This document shows positions 1,213 through 40,696 of a stretch of 64,000 nt of DNA, piece by piece. Each line of letters opens with the position of its first letter. Within the stretch, counting starts at the first letter, position 1. The translations under genes and the position numbers were made by a program. Location: NCBI GenBank assembly GCA_958295675.1, contig OY282360.1, forward strand, positions 466,026 through 530,025. Reading direction: 5' to 3'. The stretch comes from Minisyncoccota bacterium (GTDB lineage: Bacteria; Patescibacteriota; Minisyncoccia; Phycocordibacterales; JABAAK01). Below the pieces are notes generated by a model. The model saw nothing but the letters and a program-made list of their open reading frames with translations. It did not search any database and had not been told where the DNA came from.

Positions 1213-4200
1213 TTACTCCTCAGTTGGAGCAGGAGCAGATACTTCTTCTTCTTTTTCTGCAAGACGCCGCGCTATATCATCCCGAACCTCTTTTATAACA
1301 TTAAATTTCTTACTGCCCTCGTAACCACTACCGATAGGAACTAACCTGCCGATAATAACATTTTCCTTAACACCGTCTAAGGTATCCTTCGCGCCGTTAA
1401 TTGATGCTCGAATAAGAACACTGGTAGTATTTTGGAACGATGCGGCGGAAAGAAAGTTATTTCGCGATACTGACACACTCGTAATGCCGGAAACAACATC
1501 CTTGGCCTGTATAAGTTTCTTACCTTCGCTTTCAAGAGTTTCATTGGTTTCAAACAGATCACTCAGTTCAATAGACTCACCGGTGGTGTAGGTGGCATCA
1601 CCGGGGTCAGTGATCAGCATTTGACTGAACATCTGGCGAATAATGATCTCAAAATGAACAGGAGCAACATGAATACCCTGCAACTCGTACACATTAGATA
1701 TTTCACTGAAAATATACTCCTGGGTCACCTCCTTACTGGTGTAAGTGAGCAACTCCTGCAAATCAGCTGACCCGTCCGTGAGAAATTGCCCTTTTTTGAC
1801 TGTATCGCCAACCTTAACCTCAATAAAACGACCCGATGGGATAGTATAGTTCTTTTCAGAAGAGGTGGCTTTTTCATTGCCGACATTAAGATATATTGTA
1901 TGACTGCCGTCAGGATGCGGTTCAATCTTCTCAACAGTACCGTTCGCATGAGATATGGCAGCGGGTGCTTTCGGTACGCGTCGCTCAAAGATTTCTGTTA
2001 CCCTCGGCAACCCTGCCGTAATATCACCTCCAACCGAAACAACTCCTCCCGCATGGCGGGTATTCATAGTAAGCTGGGTACCGGGTTCACCGACCGACTG
2101 TGCCGCTATCGTTCCCACAGGTTCACCGATATCCACAACTTCATTTGTTGTTCTGTCTTCACCGTAACACTTCGCGCATACACCGCGTGCATATCGACAA
2201 GAAACCGGAGATCTGACCTTGATTGAATCAACACTGTCATCCTTATCAATCTTTCCGGCAATCTCAAAGTCTATATACTGATTTTTCTTGGCAATAACCG
2301 TTCCGTCACCGCCGGCAATCTCTTCAACTAAAAATCTGCCCTGTATACGGTCACAAAACGGCGCACCGACACCCGATGCTGTTTTTCTATACAAACGGAA
2401 ACCTTGCGTTGTTCCGCAATTATTTCCTTCAATCTTTAACTCCTGAGCGACGCTGAATAACTTTCTTGAAAGAAATCCCGCGTCAGCTGTTTTCAGCGCC
2501 GTATCCGCAAGACCCTTTCTGGCACCGAACGATGCGTTAAAATACTCAATCGGCGACATACCGTCTTTCATAGATGAAATAACCGGCTGTTCAATCGGAT
2601 CACCGGATGCCGATTCAACAACACCGAACATGGTTGTCATCTCACCCAAATCGTCAAATGAACCGCGTGCGCCTGACTCAATCATGTTTCCTATGGAAGA
2701 ATCCACGGGTATAGTATCACGCACTTCCTTGGTGAGACCGGCTTTAATATCCTGCCATAACAATATATTTTTTCGCTTTCGCTCTGCGAACGATATATAT
2801 CCCTCCTCATACTCGGACATAATTCTTTTTGACTCAGCATACCCTTCCTGTATTTTTTGATCACGATCCTTCGGCACCTTCAGATCAGACCAAGCAAATG
2901 TGATGCCTGATTTAGATGCGTATCGAAAACCGAAGTTCTTTATAGCATCAAGATGCCGGACCAATATTTCTTTGCCGTAAGTATTGATGATATCCTGTAT
3001 AACGGCATTCATGGCTTTTTTAGTGATAGTTTCGTTAACAAAAGGATATTCTCTCGGCAGTTGTACATTGAAAAGAAGGCGACCGACTGTTGTTTCAAAC
3101 ATTTTACCTCTATGCTCCGCATACTTTGGTTTGTCAGAGGCGAGAACTTTGATCTTTGTGCGCAAATCAATAATCCCGAAATCATACGCTGTGATCGCCT
3201 CACTGACACTGCCGAAATAACGCTCTTCGCCTTTTTCACTTTCAGCAATCATAGTCGCCCAATAACAACCGAGTAAAATATCCTGTGTTGCGGGCGATAC
3301 ATTGATAGATCCGGATGCGGGTGTGATGATGTTCTTTAACGAAATCATAATTTCTCGCGCTTCGGTCTGCGCCTCCTCAGAAAGAGGAAGATGCACCACC
3401 ATCGCATCTCCGTCAAAATCCGCGTTGTAGGCAGAGCAGACAAGCGGATGTAATTCCATTGCCAAACCTTCAATAAGAATAGGTTTAAATGCCATGATAC
3501 TCTGGCGGTGCAGTGTCGGTGCTCTGTTTAAGAGCATATACTTACCGGCAATAACTTTTTCAAGCATTTCCCACACAATAGGTGCCTCGGTATCAATAAG
3601 TCGCTGCGCGCCGCGCACATTGTACGCCAGTTCCCGTTCAAGCGCTTCGCCAATAACAAAGGGTCTGAAGATTTCCAGTGCCATTTTCTTAGGCAGACCA
3701 AACTCATCCAACTGTAAATGCGGACCGGCGACAATAACAGTTCTGCCGGTAAAATCAACTCGCTTACCGAGCAAACTAGTTCTGAAATATCCTGTTTTTC
3801 CGCCAAGATATTCAGAAATTGGTTTCAGCTGCTTTCCCTGTCCTCTGCTAGCTGCCGCTCCGCCTCTTCCGACACTCGTTTTTTCAAATAACGCATCAAC
3901 TGCTTCCTGAAGCAGGCGTTTCTCAGTATTGATAAAAATCTGCGGTGTCTTTGTCGCGATGAAATCCTTTAGGCGATTATTCCTGATAATGACAGTACGA
4001 TATAAATCATTCAAATCGGAACTCGCCGGCTGACCGCCCGCGAGCAGCAGAACAGGGCGAATACCCGGAGGAACAATCGGAAGCCGTGTGAGAAACATCC
4101 ACTCCGGACGATTGCCGGATTGAATGAACGACCGAATGAGAAGCAGTTGTTTTTGCAATTTTTCCTGCTGCATCTTGCTCGCGACATCCAGTTCTCCGAG

Positions 4201-4917: not shown

Positions 4918-7900
4918 TTATCCTGTTACCTTAGTGCGCTTCCGATCACGCCGCGGAACCTCATCCGACTGATCCCGATCGGGTACATTCATAGTCACAT
5001 CCAAACCGAGGCCGCGCAGGTGGTATAAAAGCACATTAAATGTCGCGGGAATACCGGTTTGAACAATTGGTTCATTATGTATTATTGCTTTATACGCTAT
5101 ATTACGACCGTGCATATCATCGGATTTAATAGTGAGCATTTCACGCAGAATATACGCGGCTCCATGACCGAGCAATGCCCATACCTCCATTTCTCCCAAC
5201 CGGTTGCCGCCGAAACGCGCTCGTCCGCCGGGCGGTTGCTGAGTAATCAACGAATAACGACCGGTTGAACGGGCGTGCACTTTATCCTGCACCATGTGTT
5301 CAAGTTTCATAACATACATCCAGCCAATCGCCACATCGCCGGCGAACCGGTCACCGGTCTTGCCGTCAAACAGTTCAACGCAACCGGTATTCGGAAAACC
5401 GGCTTTTTGTAATTCTTCCTGTACCTCTCCTTCGGTCACCGATGTCATGGGCGGCACAATCGCCTGATAATTCAACGCATGCGCCGCAAGTCCGAGATGC
5501 ATTTCCAAAATTTGACCGAGGTTCTTTCTGGACGGCACACCGAGCGAAGAGAAAATCACATCGACCATTTCACCGTCCTTAGTAAACGGCATATCTTCAA
5601 TCGGCGCGACACGGGATACCACACCCTTGTTTCCATACCGATTCGCCAGTTTATCTCCGACCTGAATACGCCGCAAATCAGCAATAACAATGCGTATCTG
5701 ATTCAGAACACCGACATCCACGCCATATCCACTCTCACGATTCCGTATTGACACCGAAACTACCTTCCCTTTCTCACCGGGAGGAAGTGTTTTTGAGGTG
5801 TCCCGCATATCTTTTGCCTTATCACCAAAAATTGACTGCAAAAGTCGCTCTTCGGCTGACAATTGTATTTCACCGCGCGGTGTCAGCTTACCGACAAGGA
5901 TATCGCCGGGCAATACTTCAGAACCGACACGAACCACGCCTTCAGCATCAAGATTCCGCAATTTCTGATCAGAAACATTCGGTATATCCGCAGTCATAAC
6001 ATCAGGGCCGAGTTTGGTCTGACGTGCTTCCACAACATGCTCTTTTACCTGAGTAGAGGTAAGAACATTATCGCGTACAAGGCGTTCAGATATAATAATA
6101 GAATCCTCAAATGTCCCTCCGTCATACGGTAAAAATGCCACGCGAAGGTTCTTACCGAAAGCAATCTGTCCGTTGGTGGTGGATGCTGTATCAGCTATAA
6201 CATCACCCTTTTTCACCGTATCACCAGGGGACACAGCCGTCCGCTGATGATTCGCGAAAGTATATGCGGATCCCGCCAATGTAAAAACCTCAAGATCATG
6301 CCGCTTAATTTCTTTATTCGTTTTGATACTGATATGATTCGCGTCAGCTTCAACAACTTCCCCATCTTCATCGGCAAGCACCAAACGCCCGGAAGCGCGG
6401 GCAAATTCTTTCCCGTAACCGGTGGATACTAACGGTGCCTCCGGTCGCAAACAAGGAATTGCCTGCAGTTGCATGCGTGTGCCTGTTGCCGCGCGCATCG
6501 GCAGTGTGTTCTGCACGAACGGTATCAATACCGATGAAATAGAAAGAATCTGCCCTGTTGCAACATCCACATAATCAACTTCCTGCGGACTTACCCGCGC
6601 ATATTGTCCCTGATCACGCACTAACACAATATCCTGCATAATTTCATTTTTATCGTTCACGGTAACATGCGCACCGGCAATCCGATACTGTTCTTCTTCG
6701 GATGCGGTAAAGTACGCAACTTCATCAGTTATCTTCCCATTCACTACTTTGAAATATGGACATTCCAATAAACCGTATTTATTAATCCTCGCATACAGCG
6801 TGAGATGCAGGATAAGTCCGATGTTCGCGCCATCAGGAGAATGCAGCGGACAAATGCGTCCATAATGGGTCTGGTGTATGTCGCGAATTGAAATACCGGC
6901 ATGCTCACGGCTCACACCCCCGGTGCCAAGCGCGGATATTGTTCGTAGATGTTCCAAGTTAGTCAGAATGTTCTGCTGTTTTAAGGGTTGCGACAATTGG
7001 TTAGTATTAAAAAAACCGTGAATAGTTGATTGGAATGTGCGCATATACAGCACATTGGTCGGTAATTCAAACATCTTCGGATCCGTGGTCAGCATCTTAT
7101 CCCGCGTATTCTTACGCATACGAACAAATCCTGTTCGCGCGTATTCATACACCAATTCACCGACAGAACGCACACGCCGCAGACCGAGGTGATCAATATC
7201 ATCACCAATTGCGTCAGGTGTATGATTCAAACGCACGATTTCCTTAACAATCAACACAATGTCTTCAAGTGTTAGAATTCTATTTTTAACCGCCTCCGCA
7301 TCGGTGGGCAAACCGAAACGCTTGTTGAAACTGACCCGACCCAACTCGCTCATATCATACCACTCGGGTGAAAACCGCGTCTGCACCATTTGCTTTGCCC
7401 GCTCCGCGCTGACACCGCCGCTGGCACGAAGAATTTTGTAAAATGAAGTCCAAACATCATCCATGATATTCGCATCATCAACCGCAAATGTTTTTTTAAC
7501 ACACTCAAGTGTCCTCGGATCATCTTCAAAAAGCTGAAAAACTGCCTCTTTCGTCTCAGGACCGAATGCGCGAAGAAACAGAGTCACGGGCATTTTCCGG
7601 TTTCCCTGGTCAACACGGACAAAAATCCGACCGTTAGCATCGCTCTCAAAAGCAATCCAAAGTCCTCGCCCTTTCTGCGGTATCACCTGCGCGCCGAATG
7701 TGCGGACTCTTCCGCGCATTTCCGCAAAAAAACGAACACCCTGAGCGCGCACTAATTGCGATACCACGGTTCGTTCAATGCCATTAATGATAAAAGAATA
7801 TTGCGGAGTCATAATCGGTATATCACCGAAAAGCAATTCTTCCTCTTTAGTCGCGCCGACAACTTTATTTTCCAATGCCAACATTACCCGAAACGGAGCA

Positions 7901-8148
7901 GTGTAACTTATAAACTTATCTTTCGCCTCCTGCACTGTCATCCGCGGTTCTTCAAGTTTGGAAGAAAGAAAATTGATAGAAAACCGTTCATTTGAATCAA
8001 TAATAGGGAAAAATTCATCAAACAAACCGGGAAGGTCTTCCTTTAAAAATGTGTCATACGATTCTTTTTGAAATGACAAAATATCCCCCAACGGCAATGT
8101 GGATGCCTTGTACCCTGAAAATGTTTTTTGTGTCCGTTCTGATTGCAT
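4918..8148 (-). CDS. rpoB: DNA-directed RNA polymerase subunit beta (RpoB), 1076 aa
   Basis: Full-length ORF immediately upstream of rpoC. It has conserved RpoB blocks (GEMEVWAL, NRYGNKGVVS). Confidence 0.97.
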   Translation of the reverse strand: MQSERTQKTFSGYKASTLPLGDILSFQKESYDTFLKEDLPGLFDEFFPIIDSNERFSINFLSSKLEEPRMTVQEAKDKFISYTAPFRVMLALENKVVGATKEEELLFGDIPIMTPQYSFIINGIERTVVSQLVRAQGVRFFAEMRGRVRTFGAQVIPQKGRGLWIAFESDANGRIFVRVDQGNRKMPVTLFLRAFGPETKEAVFQLFEDDPRTLECVKKTFAVDDANIMDDVWTSFYKILRASGGVSAERAKQMVQTRFSPEWYDMSELGRVSFNKRFGLPTDAEAVKNRILTLEDIVLIVKEIVRLNHTPDAIGDDIDHLGLRRVRSVGELVYEYARTGFVRMRKNTRDKMLTTDPKMFELPTNVLYMRTFQSTIHGFFNTNQLSQPLKQQNILTNLEHLRTISALGTGGVSREHAGISIRDIHQTHYGRICPLHSPDGANIGLILHLTLYARINKYGLLECPYFKVVNGKITDEVAYFTASEEEQYRIAGAHVTVNDKNEIMQDIVLVRDQGQYARVSPQEVDYVDVATGQILSISSVLIPFVQNTLPMRAATGTRMQLQAIPCLRPEAPLVSTGYGKEFARASGRLVLADEDGEVVEADANHISIKTNKEIKRHDLEVFTLAGSAYTFANHQRTAVSPGDTVKKGDVIADTASTTNGQIAFGKNLRVAFLPYDGGTFEDSIIISERLVRDNVLTSTQVKEHVVEARQTKLGPDVMTADIPNVSDQKLRNLDAEGVVRVGSEVLPGDILVGKLTPRGEIQLSAEERLLQSIFGDKAKDMRDTSKTLPPGEKGKVVSVSIRNRESGYGVDVGVLNQIRIVIADLRRIQVGDKLANRYGNKGVVSRVAPIEDMPFTKDGEMVDVIFSSLGVPSRKNLGQILEMHLGLAAHALNYQAIVPPMTSVTEGEVQEELQKAGFPNTGCVELFDGKTGDRFAGDVAIGWMYVMKLEHMVQDKVHARSTGRYSLITQQPPGGRARFGGNRLGEMEVWALLGHGAAYILREMLTIKSDDMHGRNIAYKAIIHNEPIVQTGIPATFNVLLYHLRGLGLDVTMNVPDRDQSDEVPRRDRKRTKVTG

Positions 8149-8340
8149 TCTGTATGATTATCAATCGACAAAATACTCGGCACACAATACTAAAACGGAC
8201 CCATTGAAAAAACCACCAATGTGCTTCGTTAAAAAGCACCATAGCAAAAATACATTCTTTTTGTCAATACCAAAAAATCACTATAATGTGGATAACTACA
8301 TACTCACTCCTTGACAATCCTACACATTTAACTAAATATA

Positions 8341-8380
8341 AAAAGGATAAAAAATCCCACCAGTGTTTCTACTGGTGGGA
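8341..8380 (-). terminator. Rho-independent terminator hairpin (cccaccagtgtttctactggtggg) with U-tract on minus strand
   Basis: Perfect inverted repeat followed (on minus strand) by a T-run. This is copy 1 of 4 of the same element, one downstream of each LRV gene. Confidence 0.6.
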
Positions 8381-8425
8381 TGGGTTGAGAAACACTCTTA
8401 CAACGAAAAAGAGTGTGCCGGCAAC

Positions 8426-9016
8426 TTATTCTATTTCCCTGTGAACACGAATTTGGGATGGTGTGCGGTCGTGGGCAGTAACCACCAGCCGAACATCCGT
8501 ATCCATATCCGTCGCCAGGGCGGCGAGAACGTCCGGTGGTGTACGGCTGTTGGCAGCAACTGCCATTCGAACACCCGTATCCGTATCTGTCGCCAGGTCA
8601 GCGAGAATGTCTGGTGATGTGCGGTCGTTGTGAACAAGCACAAACCGAACATCCGCATTCGCATCCGTCGCCAGGTCAGCGAGAACGTCCGGTGGTGTGC
8701 GGTCGTGGGCAGCAACCGCAAACCGTACACGCCAATCCTCATCCGCCGCCATAGTAGCGAGAACATCCGGTGGTGTGCGGTCGTGGGTAGCAACCGCTTC
8801 CCGCACCCGCCAATCCTCATCCGTCGCCAGGTCAGTGAGAACCTCCGATGGTATGTAGTCGTTGTGAACAACCACCAACCGAACATCCGCATTCGCATCC
8901 GTCGCCAGTTCAGCGAGAATGTCCGGTAGTGTGCTGTGGTTGACTTTCTGTTCGGTACATCCCGAAACGCCCAACAGAATGAGTACGAATGCACTCAGAA
9001 GTGTGAATGCTTTCAT
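8426..9016 (-). CDS. LRV (leucine-rich repeat variant / HEAT-like) repeat lipoprotein
   Basis: The true start is placed at an internal ATG (9016) giving MKAFTLLSAFVLILLGVSGC (lipobox). Tandem ~23-aa repeats follow, LA.LA.D.D..VR..V..H....P..VL (LRV, PF01816-like). The upstream part of ORF 8426..9244 is read-through of the intergenic region. Confidence 0.7.
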   Translation of the reverse strand: MKAFTLLSAFVLILLGVSGCTEQKVNHSTLPDILAELATDANADVRLVVVHNDYIPSEVLTDLATDEDWRVREAVATHDRTPPDVLATMAADEDWRVRFAVAAHDRTPPDVLADLATDANADVRFVLVHNDRTSPDILADLATDTDTGVRMAVAANSRTPPDVLAALATDMDTDVRLVVTAHDRTPSQIRVHREIE

Positions 9017-9159
9017 GTGACCTCCTGTGGTCTCCGTTGTGAAAGGGCAAAAAGCAATCTGCCACCTAACATATAGTATGCATATATCAGTATAATATGT
9101 CAATAATTCTACCAAAAAATACACTTTTTTCAATATGTTTTGTTGTTTGGTGCGTACTA

Positions 9160-9192
9160 TAAAAAATCCCACCAGCGTTTCCACTGGTGGGA
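9160..9192 (-). terminator. Rho-independent terminator (cccaccagcgtttccactggtggg), copy 2
   Basis: Same hairpin as 8356-8379 and a poly-A on the plus strand (poly-U on minus). It is downstream of the LRV gene 9241..10230. Confidence 0.6.
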
Positions 9193-9240
9193 TAAGTGAG
9201 AGAATGCTCCTCGTTGGAGAAGACAAAGAAGATATACTGC

Positions 9241-10230
9241 TCAATCCCTACCTTCTTCCCGCCAATTGGGATTTTTGGCAACCGCTCTACAAACTTCGAA
9301 TCTGGAATCTTCTAACATCTTTTTGAGGAGATGTAACGGTGTGCTACCGTTATCAGCAACCTTCTCTCGCACCTGCCAATCTGCATCCTCTGCCAATGTG
9401 GCGAGGAGTGCCGGTGGTGTGCTTTCGTTAGAAGCAAGCGCAAACCGCACCCGCCGATCCGAATCCTGTACCAGTTCAGTGAGGACTGACAGCGGTATGT
9501 TTGTGCTATCCTTTTCAGCAACCGCTGCTCGCACCCGCCAATGTGAATCCTTTGCTAGTTTGACGAGAACTGCCGATGATGTGTTGTTGTTTTCAGCAGC
9601 CGCAAGCCGCATCCACACATCCGTATTCTTTGCCAGTTTGACAAGAGCTGCCGGTGATATGTTATTGTTTTCAGCAGCCGCAAGCTGCACCCACAGATGT
9701 GCATCCTGTGCCAATGTGGCGAGAACTGCCGATGGTGTGTTGTTGTTTTCAGCAACTGCTTCCCGCACCTGCCAATGCGTATCCTTTGCTAGTTTGGCGA
9801 GGAGTGCCGGTGGTGTGTTGCCAATGGAAGCAATCATCGCCCGAACACGTTCATTCACATCCTTCGCCATGTCAGCAAGGACCGCCGGCGGTGTGTTGAT
9901 GTGGCGAGCAACCGTAAGCCGCACCACCACATCCGGATTCTCTGCCAGTTTGACAAGAGCTGCCGGTGATATGTTATTGTTTTCAGCAGCCATAAGCTGC
10001 ACCCACGGATGTGCATCCTGTGCCAATGTGGCGAGAACTGCTGGCGGTGTGCTACCGTTGGAAGCAACCGCCGCTCGCACCTGCCAATCCGGATCTCTTG
10101 CCAGTTCAACGAGGACTTCCGGTGGTGTGATGCTGTTACCGGCAACTCTTTCCCGTATCTGCCAATCCACATCTCTTGCCATTTCAGCAAGGGTTTTCAG
10201 TGTTCTTTCATTCAGAGTGTCTGCCTTCAT
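9241..10230 (-). CDS. LRV/HEAT-like repeat protein (no signal peptide)
   Basis: The true start is placed at ATG 10230 (MKADTLNERTLKTLAEMARDVDWQIRERVAGNSITPPEVL...). The Cys-rich N-terminal 200 aa of ORF 9241..10839 is out-of-context read-through across the terminator/promoter region. About 13 LRV repeats. Confidence 0.65.
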   Translation of the reverse strand: MKADTLNERTLKTLAEMARDVDWQIRERVAGNSITPPEVLVELARDPDWQVRAAVASNGSTPPAVLATLAQDAHPWVQLMAAENNNISPAALVKLAENPDVVVRLTVARHINTPPAVLADMAKDVNERVRAMIASIGNTPPALLAKLAKDTHWQVREAVAENNNTPSAVLATLAQDAHLWVQLAAAENNNISPAALVKLAKNTDVWMRLAAAENNNTSSAVLVKLAKDSHWRVRAAVAEKDSTNIPLSVLTELVQDSDRRVRFALASNESTPPALLATLAEDADWQVREKVADNGSTPLHLLKKMLEDSRFEVCRAVAKNPNWREEGRD

Positions 10231-10380
10231 CGTCGCACAATCCTTTTGTTGTGAAAGAGCAGTGAGGAGGTGACAACACCACCTAATATACAGTATGTAC
10301 ATATTAGTGCAATACATCAAGTATCCCCTACAGGAGTACATCTGTTTTTTAATATATTTTGTAGTTTGGTGTATGAAGTA

Positions 10381-10424
10381 AAAAAGAGTAAAAAATATCC
10401 CACCAGCGTTTCCACTGGTGGGAT
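10381..10424 (-). terminator. Rho-independent terminator (cccaccagcgtttccactggtggg), copy 3
   Basis: Identical hairpin and A/T-tract. Downstream of the LRV gene 10470..12053. Confidence 0.6.
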
Positions 10425-10469
10425 GAGTTGAGAGGTGATTCCTCTTGAGCGAATGGAATGGATGAGCAG

Positions 10470-12053
10470 TTATTCCGCTTTCAATGCTTTCCACTGCGCT
10501 TGTACAGATTGTACAACAGATTGTACATCCGCATCCTGCGCTAAGATGGCAAGAACTTCTGGCGATATGTTTCTGTTGAAGATAACCTCCAGTCGCACTG
10601 ACAAATTTGCGTCCTCTGCCAGTCGTGCAAGCACTTCTGGCGGTGTGCTGCCGTTGCGAGCAACTGCCAGTCGCACCCGCCACTCCGCATTCTCTGCCAG
10701 TTTGGCAAGGGTTTCTGGCGGTGTACTGCTGTGGCGAGCAACCTCTTGTTGAACATCTACATCCGCACCCTCTGCCAGTCGTGCAAGCACTTCTGGCGGT
10801 GTGCTGCCGTTGCGAGCAACTGCCGCTCGCATTCGCCAATCCTCATCCTCTGCCAGTCGTGCAAGTACTTCCGACGGTGTGCTGCCGTTGCGAGCAACCT
10901 CTTGTTGAACATCTACATCCGCACCCTCTGCCAGTTTGGCAAGGGTTTCTGGCGGTGTGCTGCCGTTGCTAGCAACCTCTTGTTGAACATCTACATCCGC
11001 ACCCTCTGCCAGTCGTGCAAGCACTTCTGGCGGTGTGCTGCCGTTGCTAGCAACTACCTTTCGCATTTGCCCATCCGCACCCTCCGCCATGATGGCGAGG
11101 GATGCCGGCGGCATGTCGGGATGCCGAGCAGCCACAAGCCGAACAGACGCATAAGCATCCTCTGCCAGGATGGCGAGGGATGCCGACGGCGTGTAGTTAT
11201 GCTGAGCAACCGCATACCGGATATCAGTATCTACATCCTCTGCCAGGATGGCGAGGGATGCCGACGGCGTGTAGTGATGCTGAGCAACCGCACGCCGAAC
11301 AAACGCATAAGCATCCTCTGCCAGGGCAGCGAGCCTTGTCGGCGGCATGTCGGGATGCCCAGCAGCCACAAGCCGAACAGACGCATCCAGATCCTCTGCC
11401 AGGGCAGCGAGCCTTGTCGGCGGCATGTCGGGATGCCGAGCAGCCACAAGCCGAACAGACGCATTCAGATCCTCTGCCAAGACGGCGAGGGATGCCGGCG
11501 GTGTGTTGTCATTGCCAGCAACCAATCGCCGAACAGACGAATCCGGATCCTCTGCCAGGACGGCGAACGATACCGGCGACGTGTCAGGATGCCGAGCAAC
11601 CCATGACCGAACAGACGCATCCGGATCCTCTGCCAGGATGGCGAGGGATGCCGGCGACGTGTTGGGATGCCGAGCAACCCATAACCGAACAAACCTATTT
11701 GCATCCTCTGCCAGGGCAGCGAGCCTTGTCGGCGGCGTGTCAGGATGCCGAGCAACCGCACGCCGAACACCCGCTTCCGGATCCTCTGCCAGGGCAGCGA
11801 GCGTTGTCGGCGGCGTCTCGGGATGCTGAGCAACCGCATACCGAACATCCGCATTTGCATCCTCTGCCAGGGCAGCGAGCGTTGTCGGCGGCATGTCGGG
11901 ATGCCGAGCAGCCACAAACCGAACAGACGCATCCGGATCCTCTGCCAAGATGGCGAGAGTTTTCGACGGCGCGTCTTCGGCATGCACCGACACCGAAATG
12001 CCCGACAGGGTGAGTACGAGTACACTCAAAAGCGTGCACAGTTTCAATTTCAT
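10470..12053 (-). CDS. Secreted LRV/HEAT-like repeat protein, 527 aa (~20 repeats)
   Basis: Signal peptide MKLKLCTLLSVLVLTLSGISVSVHAEDA, then iterated LA.LAED.D..VR..VA.H.DTPP repeats. Confidence 0.75.
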   Translation of the reverse strand: MKLKLCTLLSVLVLTLSGISVSVHAEDAPSKTLAILAEDPDASVRFVAARHPDMPPTTLAALAEDANADVRYAVAQHPETPPTTLAALAEDPEAGVRRAVARHPDTPPTRLAALAEDANRFVRLWVARHPNTSPASLAILAEDPDASVRSWVARHPDTSPVSFAVLAEDPDSSVRRLVAGNDNTPPASLAVLAEDLNASVRLVAARHPDMPPTRLAALAEDLDASVRLVAAGHPDMPPTRLAALAEDAYAFVRRAVAQHHYTPSASLAILAEDVDTDIRYAVAQHNYTPSASLAILAEDAYASVRLVAARHPDMPPASLAIMAEGADGQMRKVVASNGSTPPEVLARLAEGADVDVQQEVASNGSTPPETLAKLAEGADVDVQQEVARNGSTPSEVLARLAEDEDWRMRAAVARNGSTPPEVLARLAEGADVDVQQEVARHSSTPPETLAKLAENAEWRVRLAVARNGSTPPEVLARLAEDANLSVRLEVIFNRNISPEVLAILAQDADVQSVVQSVQAQWKALKAE

Positions 12054-12112
12054 GTGACCTCCTTCGGTCTCTGTGTGAAAGAACAGAAAGCAATCTGCTC
12101 CACCTAGTATAT

Positions 12113-12142
12113 AGTATACATGTGTTAGTATAATATGTCAAA
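12113..12142 (-). promoter_or_regulatory. Sigma70-like promoter for the LRV gene 10470..12053 (TTGACA-17-TATACT on the minus strand)
   Basis: The reverse complement reads ttgaca tattatactaacacatg tatact. The same block is duplicated at 12941-12970, and a similar one lies near 9095-9125. Confidence 0.5.
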
Positions 12143-12199
12143 TACCCCCTCCCAGAAATATCCTTGTTTTTTAGGGTATTTTGTTGTTTGGTGTATGAA

Positions 12200-12246
12200 G
12201 TAAAAAAGAATAAAAAATATCCCACCAGCGTTTCCACTGGTGGGAT
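12200..12246 (-). terminator. Rho-independent terminator (cccaccagcgtttccactggtggg), copy 4
   Basis: Identical hairpin. Downstream of the LRV gene 12281..12880. Confidence 0.6.
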
Positions 12247-12280
12247 GGGTTGAGGAAGACTCCTGCAACCAACTAGTTAC

Positions 12281-12880
12281 TCAGAGTGAATCAAGCCACG
12301 CTTGTACATCTTGTACACCCGCATCCTCTGCCAGGGTAGCGAGTATTGCCAGCGGTGTGTTGGGATTGCGACTAACCACATACCGAACATACGCCTTTGC
12401 ATCCTCTGCCAGGGTAGCGAGTATTGCCGGCGGTGTGTTGGGATTAAGAGCAACCCCGTGCCGGGCACCCATATCCGCATCCTCTGCCAGGGTAGCGAGT
12501 ATTGCCGGCGGTGTGTTGGGATTACGACCAACCCTAAACCGAACATACCCATCCGCATCCTCTGCCAGTCGTGCAAGTGCTTCCGACGGTGTCATGCTGT
12601 TGCCAGCAACTGCCTCTCGCACTCTCCAAACTACATCCTCTGCCAGGGTAGCGAGAATTGCCGGCGGTGTGCGCGACGAAGAAGCAACCCTATACCGAAC
12701 CTCCCACTCCGCATCCTCTGCCATGACGGCGAGGGATGTCGGCGATATCGGTGCAGTGATGCGAGCAGCACTGGGGAGAGGTTCCAGTATTGCAATCCGC
12801 GACGCGTCTTCGGCATGCACCGAAACCGAAATGCCCGACAGGGTGAGTACGAGTACACTCAAAAGCGTGAATAGTTTCAT
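12281..12880 (-). CDS. Secreted LRV/HEAT-like repeat protein (199 aa)
   Basis: True start at ATG 12880 (MKLFTLLSVLVLTLSGISVSVHAEDA). The signal peptide is nearly identical to that of the 10470..12053 gene, and LRV repeats follow. Confidence 0.7.
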   Translation of the reverse strand: MKLFTLLSVLVLTLSGISVSVHAEDASRIAILEPLPSAARITAPISPTSLAVMAEDAEWEVRYRVASSSRTPPAILATLAEDVVWRVREAVAGNSMTPSEALARLAEDADGYVRFRVGRNPNTPPAILATLAEDADMGARHGVALNPNTPPAILATLAEDAKAYVRYVVSRNPNTPLAILATLAEDAGVQDVQAWLDSL

Positions 12881-12940
12881 TATGACCTCCTTTGGTCTCT
12901 GTGTGAAAGAACAGAAAGCAATCTGCTCCACCTAGTATAT

Positions 12941-12970
12941 AGTATACATGTGTTAGTATAATATGTCAAA
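12941..12970 (-). promoter_or_regulatory. Duplicated sigma70-like promoter (TTGACA-17-TATACT) for the LRV gene 12281..12880
   Basis: Sequence 12893-12990 is near-identical to 12063-12150. Confidence 0.5.
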
Positions 12971-13020
12971 TACCCCCCCCCGAGATATCCTTGTTTTTCA
13001 AGGTATTTTAACACAAAGGA

Positions 13021-14025
13021 CTATTTATTCAGCAATAAACACTCTAACGGTAATACTTTTATGGATGATCGTGGAATAGCATACGATGCTTCCAGAAGGT
13101 CTGTAAGCATGGTGAGTGTCAGACCTTCTTTTTTTGATAATGTATCAATAAACTGTCTGTCGTCTTCAGTATATTCCTCAACAATATCAGTTACCTGTTC
13201 ACGCAACAGAAGTGCGGCGCGCAGTTTCCGTATACATAATTTAGCGAAGAGCGGGATATTCGCATTTGTTTGTGACGCGGTAGAAAGAGCAGCAACACCG
13301 GCAGCGATATCATGATCCGCAAGTGCCGCAAGATACTCATTTATCAACCGATGTTTAGGTGCGCCGAGCACTTCTTCTGCAAGTTGATGATCCACGGTCT
13401 TGCCGTCGGCAACAAACAGGATTTTTTGAAGCAATGTGAGTGTGTCACGGAATGATCCTTCTGCCATTAATGCGACAAGGGCGGCGGATTGTTTGGTGAT
13501 CACAAATCCTTCTTTCTTCGCCGCCTCAATGGCTGTATTCTGCAGAACGGCAAGCGACGGCTGCTGAAATTGCAGCGATACACAACGGGAAACAACAGTT
13601 TCCGGTACCTTTTCCGCTTCAGTGGTGACAAGTATAAAAATAACATGCGCGGGCGGTTCTTCCAATGTTTTAAGAAATGCATTGAAAGCTGACTTTGAAA
13701 GCATATGCACTTCATCAAGAATATACACTTTGTACTCCGACTCAACCGGCTGTGTGTACACTGACGCGGTGATATCCCTGATATGCTCAACACTGGTGTG
13801 AGATGCCGCATCAATTTCAAACACATCTATATCCTTACACTGCATTGTCTTTGCGAAAATGCGCGCAATGCTGGTCTTACCGATACCGCGCGGACCGGTA
13901 AACAGGTAGGCATGAGCGGGAGCACCCTGCTTCGCCGCCTTTTCAAGAACGGAAACAACTTGCGGCTGTTCAATAACATCCTCAAATAATTGCGGTCTGT
14001 GTTTTTGGTACAACGCTCGATCCAT
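13021..14025 (-). CDS. dnaX: DNA polymerase III clamp-loader subunit gamma/tau (short form, 334 aa)
   Basis: Walker A GPRGIGKTSIARIFAK. KVYILDEVHMLSKSAFNAFLKTLEEPPAHVIFILVTT is almost identical to the canonical DnaX box. Confidence 0.88.
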   Translation of the reverse strand: MDRALYQKHRPQLFEDVIEQPQVVSVLEKAAKQGAPAHAYLFTGPRGIGKTSIARIFAKTMQCKDIDVFEIDAASHTSVEHIRDITASVYTQPVESEYKVYILDEVHMLSKSAFNAFLKTLEEPPAHVIFILVTTEAEKVPETVVSRCVSLQFQQPSLAVLQNTAIEAAKKEGFVITKQSAALVALMAEGSFRDTLTLLQKILFVADGKTVDHQLAEEVLGAPKHRLINEYLAALADHDIAAGVAALSTASQTNANIPLFAKLCIRKLRAALLLREQVTDIVEEYTEDDRQFIDTLSKKEGLTLTMLTDLLEASYAIPRSSIKVLPLECLLLNK

Positions 14026-14062
14026 ACATCTACATACTACACTACCGTTGCATAGCCGATAT

Positions 14063-15049
14063 TCACCTGTTTGGCATCTGCTGTGGCATACAAGTAATAA
14101 AGTGTTTCACACGCCGTTCAACATCATTAGCGCATTCGGCATGTTCCATGAGATCTGTCCGTAGTTCTTTTGCGCCGTCAAACCCATTCACATATGCCTT
14201 GTAATGTTTCTTCATAATGGAAAAACGCTTTACAGATAGATTTTCCTCAAAAAGTCGGGTATGTTCAATAAGCGCAAACAATTTTTTCTTCACTGTGATC
14301 GATTCCGGTACATCTCCGCTGAAAAACCAAGGATTACCGAAAATGCCGCGCCCTATCATTACACCGTCACATCCGGTCTCTGACACACGCAACCGCGCCT
14401 CAGACATACTTACCACATCACCATTGCCGATAATTAAAGTGCCGGGAGCAATAGCATCGCGCAGTGTGACGATGTGCCTCATACGCTCCCAGTGCGCCGG
14501 CACTTTGGACATTTCTTTCCGGCTCCGCAAATGTACGGTAAGCGCGGCGATACCGGTTCGCAGTAATGTGGGTATCCATGTATCTATCTCATCTACGGCA
14601 TATCCGATTCTCGTCTTCACCGATACTGGCAACCCGGTTTGTTTCGCCGCTGTTATGACTTCAACAGCAGTTTTCGGGGATGTAATCAATGCGGCACCGC
14701 TTCCCTGTTTCTCAACGCTTCGGTCAGGACATCCCATATTGATATCAAGCCCGTCAAATCCGAGGGTTTGAACATGCTTCCCTGCTGTGTACATATTTTC
14801 AGGATTTGAAGTGAATAGTTGCGCGACAATCGGTCGCTGATTCTCCTCAAAAAGCAAATCAACATACAGTGATTCGCGTCCGGGAGAACACAGACCGTCA
14901 GCGGAGACAAACTCGGTCCAGAATATATCCGGCTTACCGTATCGGGCAAACATGGAACGAAAGGCGACATCAGTCACATCCGCCATCGGTGCAATTGCAA
15001 AAAATGGACGGAGGAGTGTGTCCCAGAAAGACGAAGATAATGTGTTCAT
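14063..15049 (-). CDS. tRNA-dihydrouridine synthase (Dus family)
   Basis: TIM-barrel Dus motifs (APMADVTDVAFR, DINMGCP, VSVKTRIG). The start is placed at the internal Met MNTLSS. Confidence 0.82.
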   Translation of the reverse strand: MNTLSSSFWDTLLRPFFAIAPMADVTDVAFRSMFARYGKPDIFWTEFVSADGLCSPGRESLYVDLLFEENQRPIVAQLFTSNPENMYTAGKHVQTLGFDGLDINMGCPDRSVEKQGSGAALITSPKTAVEVITAAKQTGLPVSVKTRIGYAVDEIDTWIPTLLRTGIAALTVHLRSRKEMSKVPAHWERMRHIVTLRDAIAPGTLIIGNGDVVSMSEARLRVSETGCDGVMIGRGIFGNPWFFSGDVPESITVKKKLFALIEHTRLFEENLSVKRFSIMKKHYKAYVNGFDGAKELRTDLMEHAECANDVERRVKHFITCMPQQMPNR

Positions 15050-20001: not shown

Positions 20002-20547
20002 CTAGTCACCTTCGTTCCTGATCAGCCATTCCAAAGCCCGCACTTTCTTATCATTCGCAACATCGCTTACTCTCCGAACAGCGCGGGTTGGCTTACCGGC
20101 TTTCGGATGCTCGGATGCTAACCTACGAACATATCTGCTCGGATCCGCGGCGAGTATGGCAACTATATGACCGGGAATATTCGGATTCCGGGCAAGTGCC
20201 GCCCGAACTCTTTTCTCCTCATCCGGCGACACAAGAATGCCGTAGAGATGCGGACTGAGATCCGAACGCTTGGCAAGTTCTTCGCGCACCCAACCACTCC
20301 GGTCCTCAACCAAAATGGATGACACCCGAAGAGGTAGGTTACACGGATACCGTGCGACCATAAGACGAACATCTTTATGCCTACTGGTCGCCAATCTTCC
20401 GAGTGTCCGGACGGAGGCGTTACATCCCGATTCTGCAAGAATCCTCTCCGCATCCACGGGCGATGTGTTCCTGGAAACTGTAGCCGCGGAAACAGGCGAC
20501 GCGGAAGTCAGTGCTGCCAAGAATACTGCAATCAAAAGATGCTTCAT
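20002..20547 (-). CDS. Secreted LRV/HEAT-like repeat protein (181 aa)
   Basis: Signal peptide MKHLLIAVFLAALTSASPVSAA. It has repeats of the ..D....VR..LA..P..P type. Confidence 0.55.
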   Translation of the reverse strand: MKHLLIAVFLAALTSASPVSAATVSRNTSPVDAERILAESGCNASVRTLGRLATSRHKDVRLMVARYPCNLPLRVSSILVEDRSGWVREELAKRSDLSPHLYGILVSPDEEKRVRAALARNPNIPGHIVAILAADPSRYVRRLASEHPKAGKPTRAVRRVSDVANDKKVRALEWLIRNEGD

Positions 20548-21995: not shown

Positions 21996-22877
21996 ATGGC
22001 AGATATATGCAAAGAACTACGGAAACAACTGCATGAGTTAGATGTTCTGCGAGAATCGTGTGTATCTTTACTTGTCAGAAAAGGAATGGAATCTGCTGCG
22101 ACGAAGGAAACGATTGGAGAGTTTGATACACTTACGGAAGAATTGCATGATGCGGTGGTACTGTACAGACAGCCGTTTAATGAGCGTCTGGACGATATAG
22201 AGCGGAAGATGAAGAAGAAAGAAAACCTGACAAAATGGGAATACTGGGTGTTGTATGGTATAGATCTGCACCTGAAGGGTGGGAATCATGAGGAAAGAGA
22301 AAGACGAAAAGATATGGTGAAAAGATGGAGAAGTGATGAAGAAAAGAAACAAGATCTCGCACTTGCGCTTGACATCATTCCCGATCGTATTTCCGTGACT
22401 GAAAAAGAAGCACTTTCCGGTAACATACAGTACCATTATGGTGGTTTATGTCCGCCGGGTCATTTACATCCACCCCGTGGCATCGCCTCCACTTCTGGTG
22501 ATGAACTTATACTGCCTGAGGAGATTAGTGGTGGTCTTACTCTTAGTGCTCTCATCTCCGTACATAAACTTACCTTACCAAAAGAAATTGGTGGTTTTCT
22601 GATGCTTGACAATCTTACTTCTGCCGGCGCCGGACTGACTATGCCGGAGAAAGTTGGTGGTAGTCTGCACCTTGACAATCTCAAATCCATAAAGATTAAG
22701 CTCACTATGCCGAAGAAGGTTGGTGATAATCTGAATATTAGCGGACTCAGATCCATAAATACTAAGATCACCTTTCCGGAGGAGGTTGAAGGTATTATAT
22801 ATGTAAACAAAGCACTACCAGAAAACGAGAAAGAAGAACTGGAGAGACGATATCCGGGTAAGATTCGTGAGGTATAA
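21996..22877 (+). CDS. Member 1 of the MADICKELRK paralog family (293 aa; ~5 repeats)
   Basis: Conserved ~150-aa N-terminus, 20-aa repeats (L.L..L.SI.T.LTMP..VGG) and a conserved C-terminus ...ALPENEKEELERRYPGKIREV. Confidence 0.8.
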   Translation: MADICKELRKQLHELDVLRESCVSLLVRKGMESAATKETIGEFDTLTEELHDAVVLYRQPFNERLDDIERKMKKKENLTKWEYWVLYGIDLHLKGGNHEERERRKDMVKRWRSDEEKKQDLALALDIIPDRISVTEKEALSGNIQYHYGGLCPPGHLHPPRGIASTSGDELILPEEISGGLTLSALISVHKLTLPKEIGGFLMLDNLTSAGAGLTMPEKVGGSLHLDNLKSIKIKLTMPKKVGDNLNISGLRSINTKITFPEEVEGIIYVNKALPENEKEELERRYPGKIREV

Positions 22878-22909
22878 ATTTTAGTGAACCATGCTATCTT
22901 ACTCTTGGT

Positions 22910-24103
22910 ATGGCAGATATATGCAAAGAACTGCGGAAACAGTTACATGAGTTAGATGTTCTACGGAAAACTTGCGGCTCTTTGCTTCTCAGAGAAGGAA
23001 TAGAATCTGATACGGCGAAGAAAGCGGTTAGGGAGTTTGATACGCTGGCGGAAGAATTGCGTAGTGAAGTTGCGTTCTACAAACAACCATATAGCAAGCG
23101 TTTAGACGGCATAGAACGGAAGATAAATAATGATGAGAACCTGACAAAATGGGAATGCCGGGTGCTGTACAATGTAGACTGGTACCCGGGAATTATAAAT
23201 TTTGAAAATGAAGGAGAGAATAGACAAGAAGACATGGAAAAAAAGAGAAGCGATGAAGAGAAGAAACAGGATCTCGCGCTCGTGTTTGACACTACTCCCA
23301 ATCATATTTCTCTGACTGAAGAAGAAGCACTTTCCGGTAATATACGATATCATTATGGTGTTCTGACTTTTCGCTGGGAATCCATAGATACTGAGCTCAC
23401 TATGCCGGAGGAGGTTGGTCGTGGTCTGGATCTCAGGAGCATCACATCCATAAAGACTAATCTCACTATGCCGAAGAAGGTTGGTGGTGATCTGGATCTT
23501 TGCAATCTCAAATCCATAGATGCTGATCTCACTATGCCGGAGGAGGTTGGTGGTAATCTGGACTTCCTTTATCTCACATCCATAGATACTGATCTCACTA
23601 TGCCGAGAAAGATTGGTGGCTATCTGAATCTTGGCAATCTCAAATCCATAAATACTAAACTCACCATGCCGAAGAAGGTTGGTGGTGATCTGTATCTTAA
23701 CGGTCTCACATCCATAAAGACTAATCTCACTATGCCGGAGGAGGTTGGTGGTAATCTGCATCTTGGCGCTCTCACATCAATAAATACTAAACTCACCATG
23801 CCGAAAAAGGTTCGTGCCAATTTGGATCTTGGCGGACTCATATCCATAGATACTGATCTCACTATGCCGGAGGTGGTTACTGGCGATTTGTCTCTCAAAA
23901 AGCTCGCCTCCGCAAAGGAACTCATCCTCCCAGAAGAAATCAGGAGAAGCTTGTACCTCAACGGTCTCACCACTACCCAAGGTGTCGTCAAATGGCCATC
24001 AAAGGTTGGGCTTGTTGTGTATATAAACGAAGCACTGCCGCAGGAAGAGAGAGAAGAATTGGAGAAACGATATCCGGGTAAGATTCGTCGTGTAACAATT
24101 TAG
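22910..24103 (+). CDS. MADICKELRK family member 2 (397 aa; ~11 repeats)
   Basis: Same N- and C-terminal domains. The conserved intergenic junction (gtgaaccatgctatcttactcttggtATGGCAGATATATGC) precedes the start. Confidence 0.8.
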   Translation: MADICKELRKQLHELDVLRKTCGSLLLREGIESDTAKKAVREFDTLAEELRSEVAFYKQPYSKRLDGIERKINNDENLTKWECRVLYNVDWYPGIINFENEGENRQEDMEKKRSDEEKKQDLALVFDTTPNHISLTEEEALSGNIRYHYGVLTFRWESIDTELTMPEEVGRGLDLRSITSIKTNLTMPKKVGGDLDLCNLKSIDADLTMPEEVGGNLDFLYLTSIDTDLTMPRKIGGYLNLGNLKSINTKLTMPKKVGGDLYLNGLTSIKTNLTMPEEVGGNLHLGALTSINTKLTMPKKVRANLDLGGLISIDTDLTMPEVVTGDLSLKKLASAKELILPEEIRRSLYLNGLTTTQGVVKWPSKVGLVVYINEALPQEEREELEKRYPGKIRRVTI

Positions 24104-24128
24104 TGAACCATGCTATCTTACTCTTGGT

Positions 24129-25649: not shown

Positions 25650-25671
25650 ACCATGCTACCTTACTCTTGGT

Positions 25672-26532
25672 ATGGCGGATATATGCAAAGAACTGCGAAA
25701 ACAGTTACATGAGTTGGATGTCCTGCGTGAATCCTGTGTCTCAGTGCTTGTCAGAGAAGGAATAGAATCCGATACAGCAAAGGAAACGATTAAGAAATTT
25801 GATGCACTGGCAGAAGAATTGCGTGACAATGCTGTATTTTACAAACAACCGTTCAGTACACATTTGGATCGTATAGAGTGGAAGATAAATAATGATGAGA
25901 ACCTGACGAAATGGGAATACTGGGTGTTGTATGGTATAGATCAGCACCTGAAAGCTAACAATTATAAAGAAAAACGAAGACGAAGAGATATGGTGACAAA
26001 ATGGAGAAGCGACGAAGAAAAGAAACGGGATCTCGCATTTCTATTTGACACTACTCCTGACCGTATTTCTTTGACCGCAAAAGAAGCATGTTCCGGTACT
26101 ATACGATATCATTACGATGATCTGAATCTTGGTATTGTCACAGCCATATATTATGAATCCACTATGCCGGAGGAGGTTGGTGGTGATCTGTATTTTGGCA
26201 ATCTCAGACTCATACGGTATAAGACCACTATGCCGAAGAAGATTGGTGGTGAACTGGATCTTTGCGGACTCACATCCATAAATAATGAGCTCACTATGCC
26301 GGAGGAGGTTGGTGGTGGTCTGTGGCTCAACGGTCTCACATCCATAAAGACTGATCTCACTATGCCGAAGGAGGTTGGTGGTGATCTGCATCTCAATAAT
26401 CTAACTAGCACGCAAGGTATCACTAACTGGCCTGTCAAAATTATAGGAACTGTGAAAATAAACACAGCACTACCGAAAAATGAGAAAGTGGAAATGGAGA
26501 AACGGTATCCGGGTAAGGTAGAATACAGGTGA
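25672..26532 (+). CDS. MADICKELRK family member 4 (286 aa)
   Basis: As above. Confidence 0.8.
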   Translation: MADICKELRKQLHELDVLRESCVSVLVREGIESDTAKETIKKFDALAEELRDNAVFYKQPFSTHLDRIEWKINNDENLTKWEYWVLYGIDQHLKANNYKEKRRRRDMVTKWRSDEEKKRDLAFLFDTTPDRISLTAKEACSGTIRYHYDDLNLGIVTAIYYESTMPEEVGGDLYFGNLRLIRYKTTMPKKIGGELDLCGLTSINNELTMPEEVGGGLWLNGLTSIKTDLTMPKEVGGDLHLNNLTSTQGITNWPVKIIGTVKINTALPKNEKVEMEKRYPGKVEYR

Positions 26533-26554
26533 ACCATGCTACCTTACTTTTGGT

Positions 26555-27496: not shown

Positions 27497-27528
27497 ATTT
27501 TAGTGAACCATGCTACCTTACTCTTGGT

Positions 27529-28482: not shown

Positions 28483-28514
28483 ATTTTAGTGAACCATGCT
28501 ACCTTACTCTTGGT

Positions 28515-37402: not shown

Positions 37403-37434
37403 ACCCGACTACAGGAGTATGTTCATCACATGTC

Positions 37435-39849: not shown

Positions 39850-40004
39850 ATACCTTATAAAGAACATTAATAAACAGTCCGTGCCGCCCGCACTATCGTG
39901 TTAACCATAAAAAAATAGTACATCAAAAAATATAGCGCGAATTATTTTTTACACATAGCAAACGACATATATAAATATCGGAAACAATCTATATTGGAAA
40001 CAAT

Positions 40005-40580: not shown

Positions 40581-40696
40581 AGATTGTGAACAAAAGAATC
40601 AAGATCTACAGACATGACCACGACAACCGCGCGGAAAACATGACAGTCAACCCACATACATAAAAAAATACTTTGCCGTGTTATCATGCGGTGTGT

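Follow-up and report, generated by a model that had tools for sequence, protein, structure and literature searches.

Four consecutive genes encoding LRV (leucine-rich repeat variant) repeats occupy the spacer between a dnaX-type gene and rpoB in a 64-kb stretch of DNA from a Minisyncoccota bacterium (hereafter, the window), and they probably form a lineage-specific, rapidly turning-over tandem array whose members are independently transcribed. The four open reading frames (ORFs), designated A, B, C, and D, all lie on the minus strand within positions 8354-13005, and rpoC accompanies rpoB in the flank (Table 1). As in the original prediction, all four genes encode LRV repeats: the Pfam model PF01816 scores 69.8, 161.3, 218.1, and 81.8 bits for A, B, C, and D, respectively (E = 1.1e-19, 7e-49, 5.5e-67, and 1.6e-23), against a gathering cut-off of 21.6, and each product also matches LRV_2 and, more weakly, HEAT. 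Two independent repeat finders recovered an in-frame period of 78 nt (26 aa) in every gene. At this period, Tandem Repeats Finder (TRF) counted 6.1 copies in A, 6.3 in B, 5.7 and 11.4 in C (10613-11054 and 11072-11957), and 5.2 in D, and an additional TRF period of 312 nt in B corresponds to a higher-order duplication. In total, A, B, C, and D carry about 6, 12, 18.5, and 5.5 units, respectively, and the repeats of C are split into two sub-blocks, C01-C11 and C12-C18. The 26-residue consensus is P-x-x-L-A-x-L-A-E-D-x-x-x-x-V-R-x-x-V-A-x-N/H-x-x-T-P. A hidden Markov model (HMM) of the repeat, run over six frames of the window, identified 42 units, all inside the cluster; the only other site, near 20.1 kb, is weak. 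The four ORFs are intact, with no frameshift or stop across the 42 repeats. Opposite-strand and alternative-frame ORFs of 186-335 aa also cover the array, and none has a Pfam match; in keeping with the earlier suspicion that they are spurious, these long ORFs are by-products of the periodic composition.

Comparison with a sister strain (L011; ENA ERZ19488997) indicates how the content of this spacer changes. The rpoB gene of this strain is 99% identical to that of the window at the protein level and 96.2% at the DNA level, the flank is 95.6% identical over 8.4 kb, and between the two rpoB genes the proportion of synonymous differences (pS) is 0.153 and the ratio of non-synonymous to synonymous change (omega) is 0.019. 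Homology extends from dnaX and stops at window position 12936, just 3' of the -10 hexamer of the first cassette, and it resumes at window position 8380, inside the last terminator hairpin. Between these breakpoints the sister strain has 1.3 kb with only two genes, g1 and g2, both of which are without a signal peptide and each of which carries a cassette-type promoter and hairpin terminator. The g2 product is 37-42% identical in amino acid sequence to the products of A-D; because this identity reaches at most 42%, the window and the sister strain hold non-orthologous cassette sets between the same bookends. Exact look-ups with gene C and dnaX returned no record, P0457 proved to be the rpoB of the window itself, on a contig of 724,510 bp, and no third strain was found.

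The source is a Paceibacterota (Kaiserbacteria-like) bacterium with a genome of roughly 0.72 Mb, and the closest genomes are metagenome-assembled genomes (MAGs) of Candidatus Paceibacterota and Kaiserbacteria. Relatives at 73-76% rpoB identity retain the gene order serS-x-dus-dnaX-rpoB-rpoC-dnaG-rpoD, and LRV repeats are absent from loci L012, L014, L015, L016, L017, and L018 (Table 1). A single LRV gene conserved at this site was not found: the relatives have none, and the sister strain has two different genes. In L001 (OZ244939.1, Candidatus Paceibacterota; 11020-12566), dnaX is followed by two paralogous small secreted non-LRV proteins with a common signal peptide, MRKLLIPAVAALALG; this is another gene pair with a duplicated signal peptide at the same position downstream of dnaX. 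A scan of metagenome contigs for the cassette hairpin gave three matches (L008-L010), all in unrelated phage-like or plasmid-like contexts, and yielded no relatives of the cassettes.

Table 1. Coordinates and properties of the array, its flanks, and the corresponding loci in other genomes (promoters, terminators, and signal peptides are predictions)
Feature	Position	Strand	Description
dnaX/holB-type gene	13021-14025	-	AAA+ clamp-loader gene (DNA polymerase III gamma/tau-delta' type); flank of array
Cassette D 5' module	12881-13005	-	G9 tract 12973-12981; TTGACA-17-TATACT at 12969-12941; ~55-nt leader; GGAGG
Gene D	12281-12880	-	199 aa; Sec-type signal peptide MKLFTLLSVLVLTLSGISVSVHA, cleaved before EDA; 5 LRV repeats and C-terminal cap
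Terminator of D	12209-12246	-	ATCCCACCAGTG-GAAA-CGCTGGTGGGAT, then T-run
Spacer and cassette C 5' module	12054-12208	-	TTGACA-17-TATACT at 12141-12113
Gene C	10470-12053	-	527 aa; Sec-type signal peptide MKLKLCTLLSVLVLTLSGISVSVHA, cleaved before EDA; 18 LRV repeats and cap
Terminator of C	10387-10424	-	Hairpin as after D, then T-run
Spacer and cassette B 5' module	10231-10386	-	Weaker TTGATG-17-CATACT at 10320-10292
Gene B	9241-10230	-	329 aa; no signal peptide; 12 LRV repeats, including a 312-nt (4-repeat) internal duplication
Terminator of B	9156-9193	-	
Spacer and cassette A 5' module	9017-9155	-	TTGACA-17-CATACT at 9103-9075
Gene A	8426-9016	-	196 aa; lipoprotein-type signal peptide MKAFTLLSAFVLILLGVSG, cleaved before C; 6 LRV repeats
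Terminator of A	8344-8381	-	Hairpin variant ATCCCACCAGTAGAAACACTGGTGGGAT, then T-run; right-hand boundary of variable segment
rpoB	4918-8148	-	Flank of array
Gene E	20002-20547 (with promoter to 20631)	-	181 aa; secreted, basic, LRV-like; signal peptide MKHLLIAVFLAALTSASPVSA
L011 g1			111 aa; sub-threshold HEAT match
L011 g2			228 aa; Pfam LRV E = 1.6e-31, 106.9 bits
L014 dnaX-rpoB spacer	3120-3473		One 117-aa gene, Gly/Glu-rich GGGSGENGGGQKGTEDAP repeats, no Pfam match, non-LRV; rpoB 76% identity
L015 dnaX-rpoB spacer			113-nt spacer only
L018 dnaX-rpoB spacer			166-nt spacer only
L017 dnaX-rpoB spacer			About 320 nt
L012			Rearranged; transposase upstream of rpoB
L016			Rearranged; PIF1 helicase upstream of rpoB

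Each of the four genes forms a self-contained cassette, with a predicted sigma-70-type promoter, a leader of ~55 nt with a GGAGG-type ribosome-binding site, the ORF, and a putative hairpin terminator. The promoters follow the pattern TTGACA/TTGATG-17-YATACT. In a promoter scan, those of D and C match at 11/12 positions and that of A at 10/12; the promoter of B (8/12) is below the scan threshold and was read from the sequence, where it aligns with the others. The hairpin pattern CCCACCAGYGTTTCYACTGGTGGG, with a 24-nt core, occurs four times in 64 kb (0 expected) and nowhere else in the window. As had been noticed, the same hairpin follows each gene; the copies after B, C, and D are identical, and that after A deviates at 2 positions. 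All four hairpins were scored as terminator-like, with a stem of 11-12 bp (6-7 GC pairs), a GAAA loop, and a T-run, 40-50 nt past the stop codon. Over six copies from the window and the sister strain the hairpin is 97% paired, and the second hairpin of the sister strain has a compensatory change from C:G to U:A. Within the window, the terminator motif is confined to A-D, and the promoter motif is common to A-D and has a homologue at a further gene, E.

The cassettes are joined by intergenic modules of ~220 bp (terminator, spacer, promoter, and leader) that alignment shows to be homologous among all four genes, so that the proposed duplicated-cassette structure extends to the whole intergenic region. 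For instance, the terminator and spacer after C are 93% identical to the module after D. The 5' regions of C and D are 98% identical between 12055-12153 and 12883-12981 and 95% identical between 11967-12046 and 12800-12879. Together, promoter, leader, and signal peptide form a module common to C and D that reaches from ~-125 to ~+85 relative to the ATG and is 93-100% identical, and identity falls to 50-75% right after the predicted signal-peptide cleavage site. A near-identical 5' region with a TTGACA-17-TATACT promoter had been described for this pair with a length of ~150 nt; the region and its promoter are as described, but its length is ~210 nt. The module is related to that of A at ~61-89% identity in parts, and promoter and leader are shared weakly by B, which has no signal peptide. 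Divergence between the non-coding parts of the C and D modules is only ~2%, compared with 15% at synonymous sites of rpoB between the strains, and the duplication or conversion that links C and D is therefore younger than the strain split.

Several further features of the non-coding DNA bear on how the cassettes are expressed. Immediately 5' of the -35 hexamer of D lies the G9 homopolymer, a candidate slippage site. Its counterpart reads GGGAGGGGG in the C copy and GGAGTTGGTG in the sister strain. A riboswitch or structured leader was considered and rejected, as an Rfam search over the whole window found no RNA family in the region and consensus folding of the four leaders gave no covariation support. 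A near-consensus promoter for rpoB alone (TTGACA-18-TATGGT, TG-extended) lies at 8238-8267 on the minus strand, and this promoter region is conserved in the sister strain. Because it follows just past the terminator of A, the array appears to be transcriptionally insulated from rpoBC.

The original prediction placed four family members at this locus. Four are indeed found in the cluster, but the family extends to gene E, 7 kb away, whose product matches Pfam LRV with E = 1e-8 (35.4 bits), has a mature isoelectric point (pI) of 10.3, and is more divergent than A-D. The promoter of gene E (20631-20595; TTGACA...TATTATATGATATATACATACTA) is homologous to the cassette promoter, and its terminator is different. 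Gene E may be an older member of the family or a co-regulated one.

The repeats themselves have also been rearranged. For 36 of 41 repeat units the nearest relative lies in the same gene, and some non-adjacent units (C13/C16, B03/B07, and A01/A04) are 90-95% identical, which points to recent segmental duplications. The framework residues L4, A5, L7, A8, E9, D10, V15, R16, A20, N/H22, T25, and P26 are conserved, and the proportion of non-synonymous differences (pN) is 0-0.04 at framework positions and 0.27-0.49 at variable positions. Changes between recent repeat pairs are mostly non-synonymous, with a pooled omega of 1.70 over pairs that are not independent of one another; over 13 independent pairs omega is 1.28 (bootstrap 0.91-1.91), compared with 0.019 for rpoB. 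A near-invariant framework with changes elsewhere fits either diversification of, or relaxed constraint on, what would be the exposed face of the repeat. No recombinase, invertase, integrase, or reverse transcriptase domain was found in the scanned (large) ORFs of the window. The array was considered as a target of a diversity-generating retroelement, and this was rejected, since the scanned ORFs include no reverse transcriptase and there is no adenine bias: closely similar repeat pairs differ at all bases, A is present on one side or the other in 50% of the cases, and the changes comprise 89 transitions and 62 transversions. An integron gene-cassette array was likewise rejected, since no integrase is present in the scanned ORFs, the cassettes have their own promoters, and each hairpin is followed by a T-run.

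Structural predictions place the variable residues on one side of a solenoid. An AlphaFold2 single-sequence model of B (predicted local distance difference test score, pLDDT, 85.7) is an all-helical solenoid in which helices of 7 and 9 residues alternate, one pair per repeat, as assigned with DSSP without separating alpha from 3-10 helices. In the register of this model, one face of each helix carries the invariant positions (4, 5, 7, 8, 15, 16, 19, and 20). The opposite face carries variable positions in an i, i+1, i+4 pattern (2, 3, and 6; 17, 18, and 21), and positions 11-14 are in a loop. Foldseek searches with the model gave the tightest superposition with 1LRV, the LRV protein of Azotobacter vinelandii (root-mean-square deviation, rmsd, 3.6 A over 202 columns, 29% identity). 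The top Foldseek matches were HEAT-type solenoids (the PP2A A subunit and artificial alphaRep; E 2e-8 to 1e-6), with poor superpositions (rmsd 6-13 A). By sequence, 1lrv_A was the sole PDB match for B, and the gene C protein had no PDB match. The model predicts that B is an acidic alpha-solenoid of the 1LRV type, and the sequences of A, C, and D suggest the same for their products.

The likeness to 1LRV, the prototype of the family, has limits. Both 1LRV and the array proteins would form a solenoid of two short helices per repeat, but the repeats of 1LRV are shorter by about two residues per unit in a HMMER alignment than the 26 residues found here. The N-terminal 4Fe-4S cluster domain of 1LRV is absent from A-D, which have no Cys cluster (mature A has 1 Cys, that of the lipobox, B has 1, and C and D have 0), and the PDB alignment covers only the repeat part of 1LRV. 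Unlike 1LRV, three of the four array proteins have export signals. HEAT and alphaRep proteins likewise combine a conserved helical framework with positions that vary on the surface. Whole-protein scores of A, B, and C exceed the cut-off of the HEAT model (PF02985), but 0 individual stretches pass it, and the HEAT unit has ~31-47 residues rather than 26.

Three members had been proposed to be secreted or lipoproteins and B to be without a signal peptide, and the N-terminal sequences agree. The N-termini of A, C, and D are hydrophobic, with a Kyte-Doolittle maximum over 12 aa of 2.6-2.9; the maximum for B, which starts MKADTLNERTLK and is without a hydrophobic segment, is 0.04. C and D start with MKL(KLC/F)TLLSVLVLTLSGISVSVHA followed by EDA, with the cleavage site between VHA and ED, and are predicted to be exported by Sec and processed by signal peptidase I. 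The lipobox of A, LLGVSG before the Cys, matches the pattern [LVI][ASTVI][GAS]C, suggesting a membrane-anchored lipoprotein. B would stay in the cytoplasm. The mature proteins have a pI of 4.5-4.8 (A, C, and D) or 5.8 (B). As B, g1, and g2 are all without a signal peptide, an envelope role is not the common denominator of the cassettes.

Taken as a probable array with recombination-driven turnover, the locus could change in the following manner. Unequal homologous recombination or gene conversion between the ~220-bp intergenic modules would duplicate, delete, or replace whole genes, and recombination among the 78-nt units would alter repeat number. The products would be non-enzymatic binding scaffolds, three of the four located at the cell envelope, whose ligand-facing surfaces diversify between paralogues and strains. 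Their partners could plausibly be carried by host cells, phages, or competitors, as would suit an episymbiotic bacterium of the candidate phyla radiation (CPR). By analogy, and by inference only, a role as variable binding scaffolds of the envelope is plausible. Such bacteria presumably rely on host-cell contact, but the list of candidate contact proteins is short. The array is a compact, sharply bounded case, with four small LRV proteins, predicted export signals, strong predicted promoters and terminators, and replacement between strains at a fixed address. If molecules of hosts or phages are bound by the variable solenoid faces, the locus would give access to host specificity at the strain level in Paceibacterota; if they bind no such molecules, it is still a clean example of repeat genes and regulatory modules duplicating together in a reduced genome.

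A number of observations weigh against parts of this interpretation. Two strains of the species were compared, and the recombination mechanism is deduced from end states. The promoters, terminators, and signal peptides are consensus-level predictions, and the model of D, made without an alignment, has a pLDDT of 41.6 and is unusable. The proposed function as a binding scaffold is drawn by analogy from HEAT-type proteins and other solenoids, and B as well as both cassette genes of the sister strain are without signal peptides. Additionally, omega among the repeats is not significantly above 1, and relaxed constraint is as compatible with it as diversifying selection.

A more ambitious interpretation is that the dnaX-rpoB spacer is a dedicated contingency locus, in which the bookends and intergenic modules serve as recombination handles for swapping, multiplying, losing, and resizing cassettes in steps of 26 residues, with the G9 tract possibly tuning expression. 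We regard this as doubtful. If true, a changing repertoire of envelope and cytoplasmic binding proteins would set which host cells and phages are engaged, and the locus would represent a new, recombinase-independent type of surface variation and the first functional context for LRV repeats.

Overall, four alternative explanations are less well supported than an array with recombination-driven turnover. The one that fares best is a programmed phase or antigenic variation locus of the Mycoplasma Vlp, Vsp, or Vpma type, with high-frequency switching through slippage in the G9 tract and recombination between cassettes. In the vsp and vpma families, conserved 5' untranslated and signal-peptide regions precede divergent bodies that contain repeats (PMC2268961), and the promoter and signal-peptide module ahead of the divergent repeat bodies of C and D has the same layout here. 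Moreover, Vpma of M. agalactiae, Vsp of M. bovis, and Vlp of M. hyorhinis are likewise clustered paralogues of a reduced genome with a homopolymer near the promoter; the present genome is reduced and probably that of an episymbiont, the G9 tract next to the -35 hexamer of D has a different sequence both in the C copy and in the sister strain, and cassette content has been replaced between strains. However, unlike in those systems, every gene of the array has its own promoter and terminator and all are in one orientation. No adjacent Xer-type recombinase or inversion site was seen in the scanned ORFs, nor was a recombinase, invertase, or reverse transcriptase encoded by the large ORFs of the window. 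The homopolymer lies outside the -35/-10 spacer and is found upstream of the -35 hexamer of one gene only, D. Only A has a lipobox, B is predicted to be cytoplasmic, and neither gene of the sister strain has a signal peptide. Finally, the repeats of Vsp, Vpma, and Vlp are short linear epitopes, whereas those of the array would be folded solenoid units. Programmed switching is thus improbable.

Another precedent is a hypervariable repeat gene in a CPR genome of the Gracilibacteria (BD1-5), which probably encodes an extracellular protein and was read as attachment-related (PMC6851277). That gene is single, has 9-nt repeats encoding PTD, and varies at the nucleotide level within a population while its amino acid sequence is conserved (PMC6851277). 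In contrast, the locus described here is a multigene array with 78-nt solenoid repeats and mostly non-synonymous differences. The very large LRV family, tandem paralogues with conserved 5' modules, and a hypervariable CPR repeat gene (PMC6851277) are already known; what is new is the combination of LRV cassettes and conserved promoter and terminator bookends with strain-to-strain replacement at one fixed position beside rpoB in a CPR genome.

The base composition of the array raises the possibility of a horizontally acquired island, that is, a foreign GC-rich block inserted between dnaX and rpoB. The original prediction noted that the block is more GC-rich than its flanks, and composition is indeed not uniform: the GC content is 0.53-0.59 in the cluster genes compared with 0.45-0.47 in rpoB, rpoC, and dnaX. 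As evidence of a foreign block, however, this difference does not stand. The excess is located at the first and second codon positions, and GC at third positions (GC3) is within the range of the window. When the amino acids of the array proteins are encoded with the synonymous codon usage of eleven housekeeping genes of the window, the expected GC content is 0.561, and 0.566 is observed (0.478 in the housekeeping genes); the array proteins have 17% Ala and 7% Pro, compared with 7% and 4% in the housekeeping genes. The excess is therefore an amino acid effect with no sign of foreign DNA, and the array shows that a GC anomaly can be of purely this kind. Absence of the block from the spacer in relatives and best database matches in Deinococcota and cyanobacteria would both agree with acquisition. 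On the other hand, identity to these matches is only 27-53% and reflects the repeat consensus, the cassette promoter also occurs at gene E, and the borders have no mobility genes, tRNA, or integration repeats. An acquired island is unlikely, although the founding LRV gene may have been transferred in ancient times.

Database searches identified no orthologues of the array genes. Searches with B, C, and D returned generic LRV proteins at 27-53% identity; the best database matches are long LRV proteins of Deinococcota and cyanobacteria. The best match to C covers about half its length at 53% identity. Gene D matches at least 14,722 clusters (50% identity level) at E of 1e-3 or below, and none exceeds 50% identity to it. 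The LRV proteins in the databases are mostly ~600-2200 aa, and A-D are much shorter. To our knowledge, no LRV-repeat protein has a known function and the family is without an established one; a literature search found no functional study of bacterial LRV proteins. The one match to B on a large contig (P0246) is a non-CPR locus with MoxR AAA and VWA genes and was set aside as not informative. In a genomic context for LRV repeats that differs from that of the array and is possibly informative, a non-CPR contig (L019; ENA ERZ25069349 contig_7, 8001-14655) encodes a 570-aa LRV protein directly upstream of a MoxR-type AAA ATPase, a VWA/DUF2201 protein, and a DprA-LRV fusion.

Paralogues that are strain-specific, fast-evolving, and predicted to reside in different compartments could also be an immunity or defence array, in which they act as decoys or immunity proteins against toxins or phage proteins and their compartments match the threats. 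In some database homologues LRV repeats are fused to NACHT NTPase domains (Pfam PF05729), which would fit such a role. However, A-E, g1, and g2 have 0 matches in PADLOC-DB, no NCBIfam model scores above its cut-off, and the array is flanked by dnaX and rpoB, with no gene for a toxin, a secretion system, or an NTPase next to it, which makes a defence array quite unlikely. Least probable of all is a functionless by-product of repeat instability, with decaying duplicates kept by chance: omega near 1 among recent repeat copies, content not conserved between strains, and the degenerate appearance of g1, with its sub-threshold HEAT match only, would fit this, but the ORFs are intact across 42 repeats, the framework residues are almost invariant (pN 0-0.04), and promoters, ribosome-binding sites, signal peptides, and terminators are kept, including a compensatory change in the hairpin.

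Other parts of the window also contain unusual genes. At 21996-29327 on the plus strand, seven consecutive paralogues of 270-506 aa all start with MADIC(K/T)ELRKQLHELD and have no Pfam match; they are 48-69% identical in pairwise comparisons and are separated by gaps of 22-32 nt. Two large ORFs are compositional outliers: an 1808-aa ORF at 55063-60489 (plus strand) with no Pfam match and a GC content at second codon positions (GC2) of 0.67, and an 857-aa ORF at 60575-63148 (minus strand) with a GC3 of 0.75 and a weak PKD match only. Additionally, 36500-39867 (minus strand) and 40673-41572 (plus strand) encode a pair of adjacent Lamin-tail-domain (LTD) proteins, of 300 and 810 aa, together with a Spondin_N-domain protein; all of these probably add to the envelope or extracellular proteins that this CPR genome encodes.

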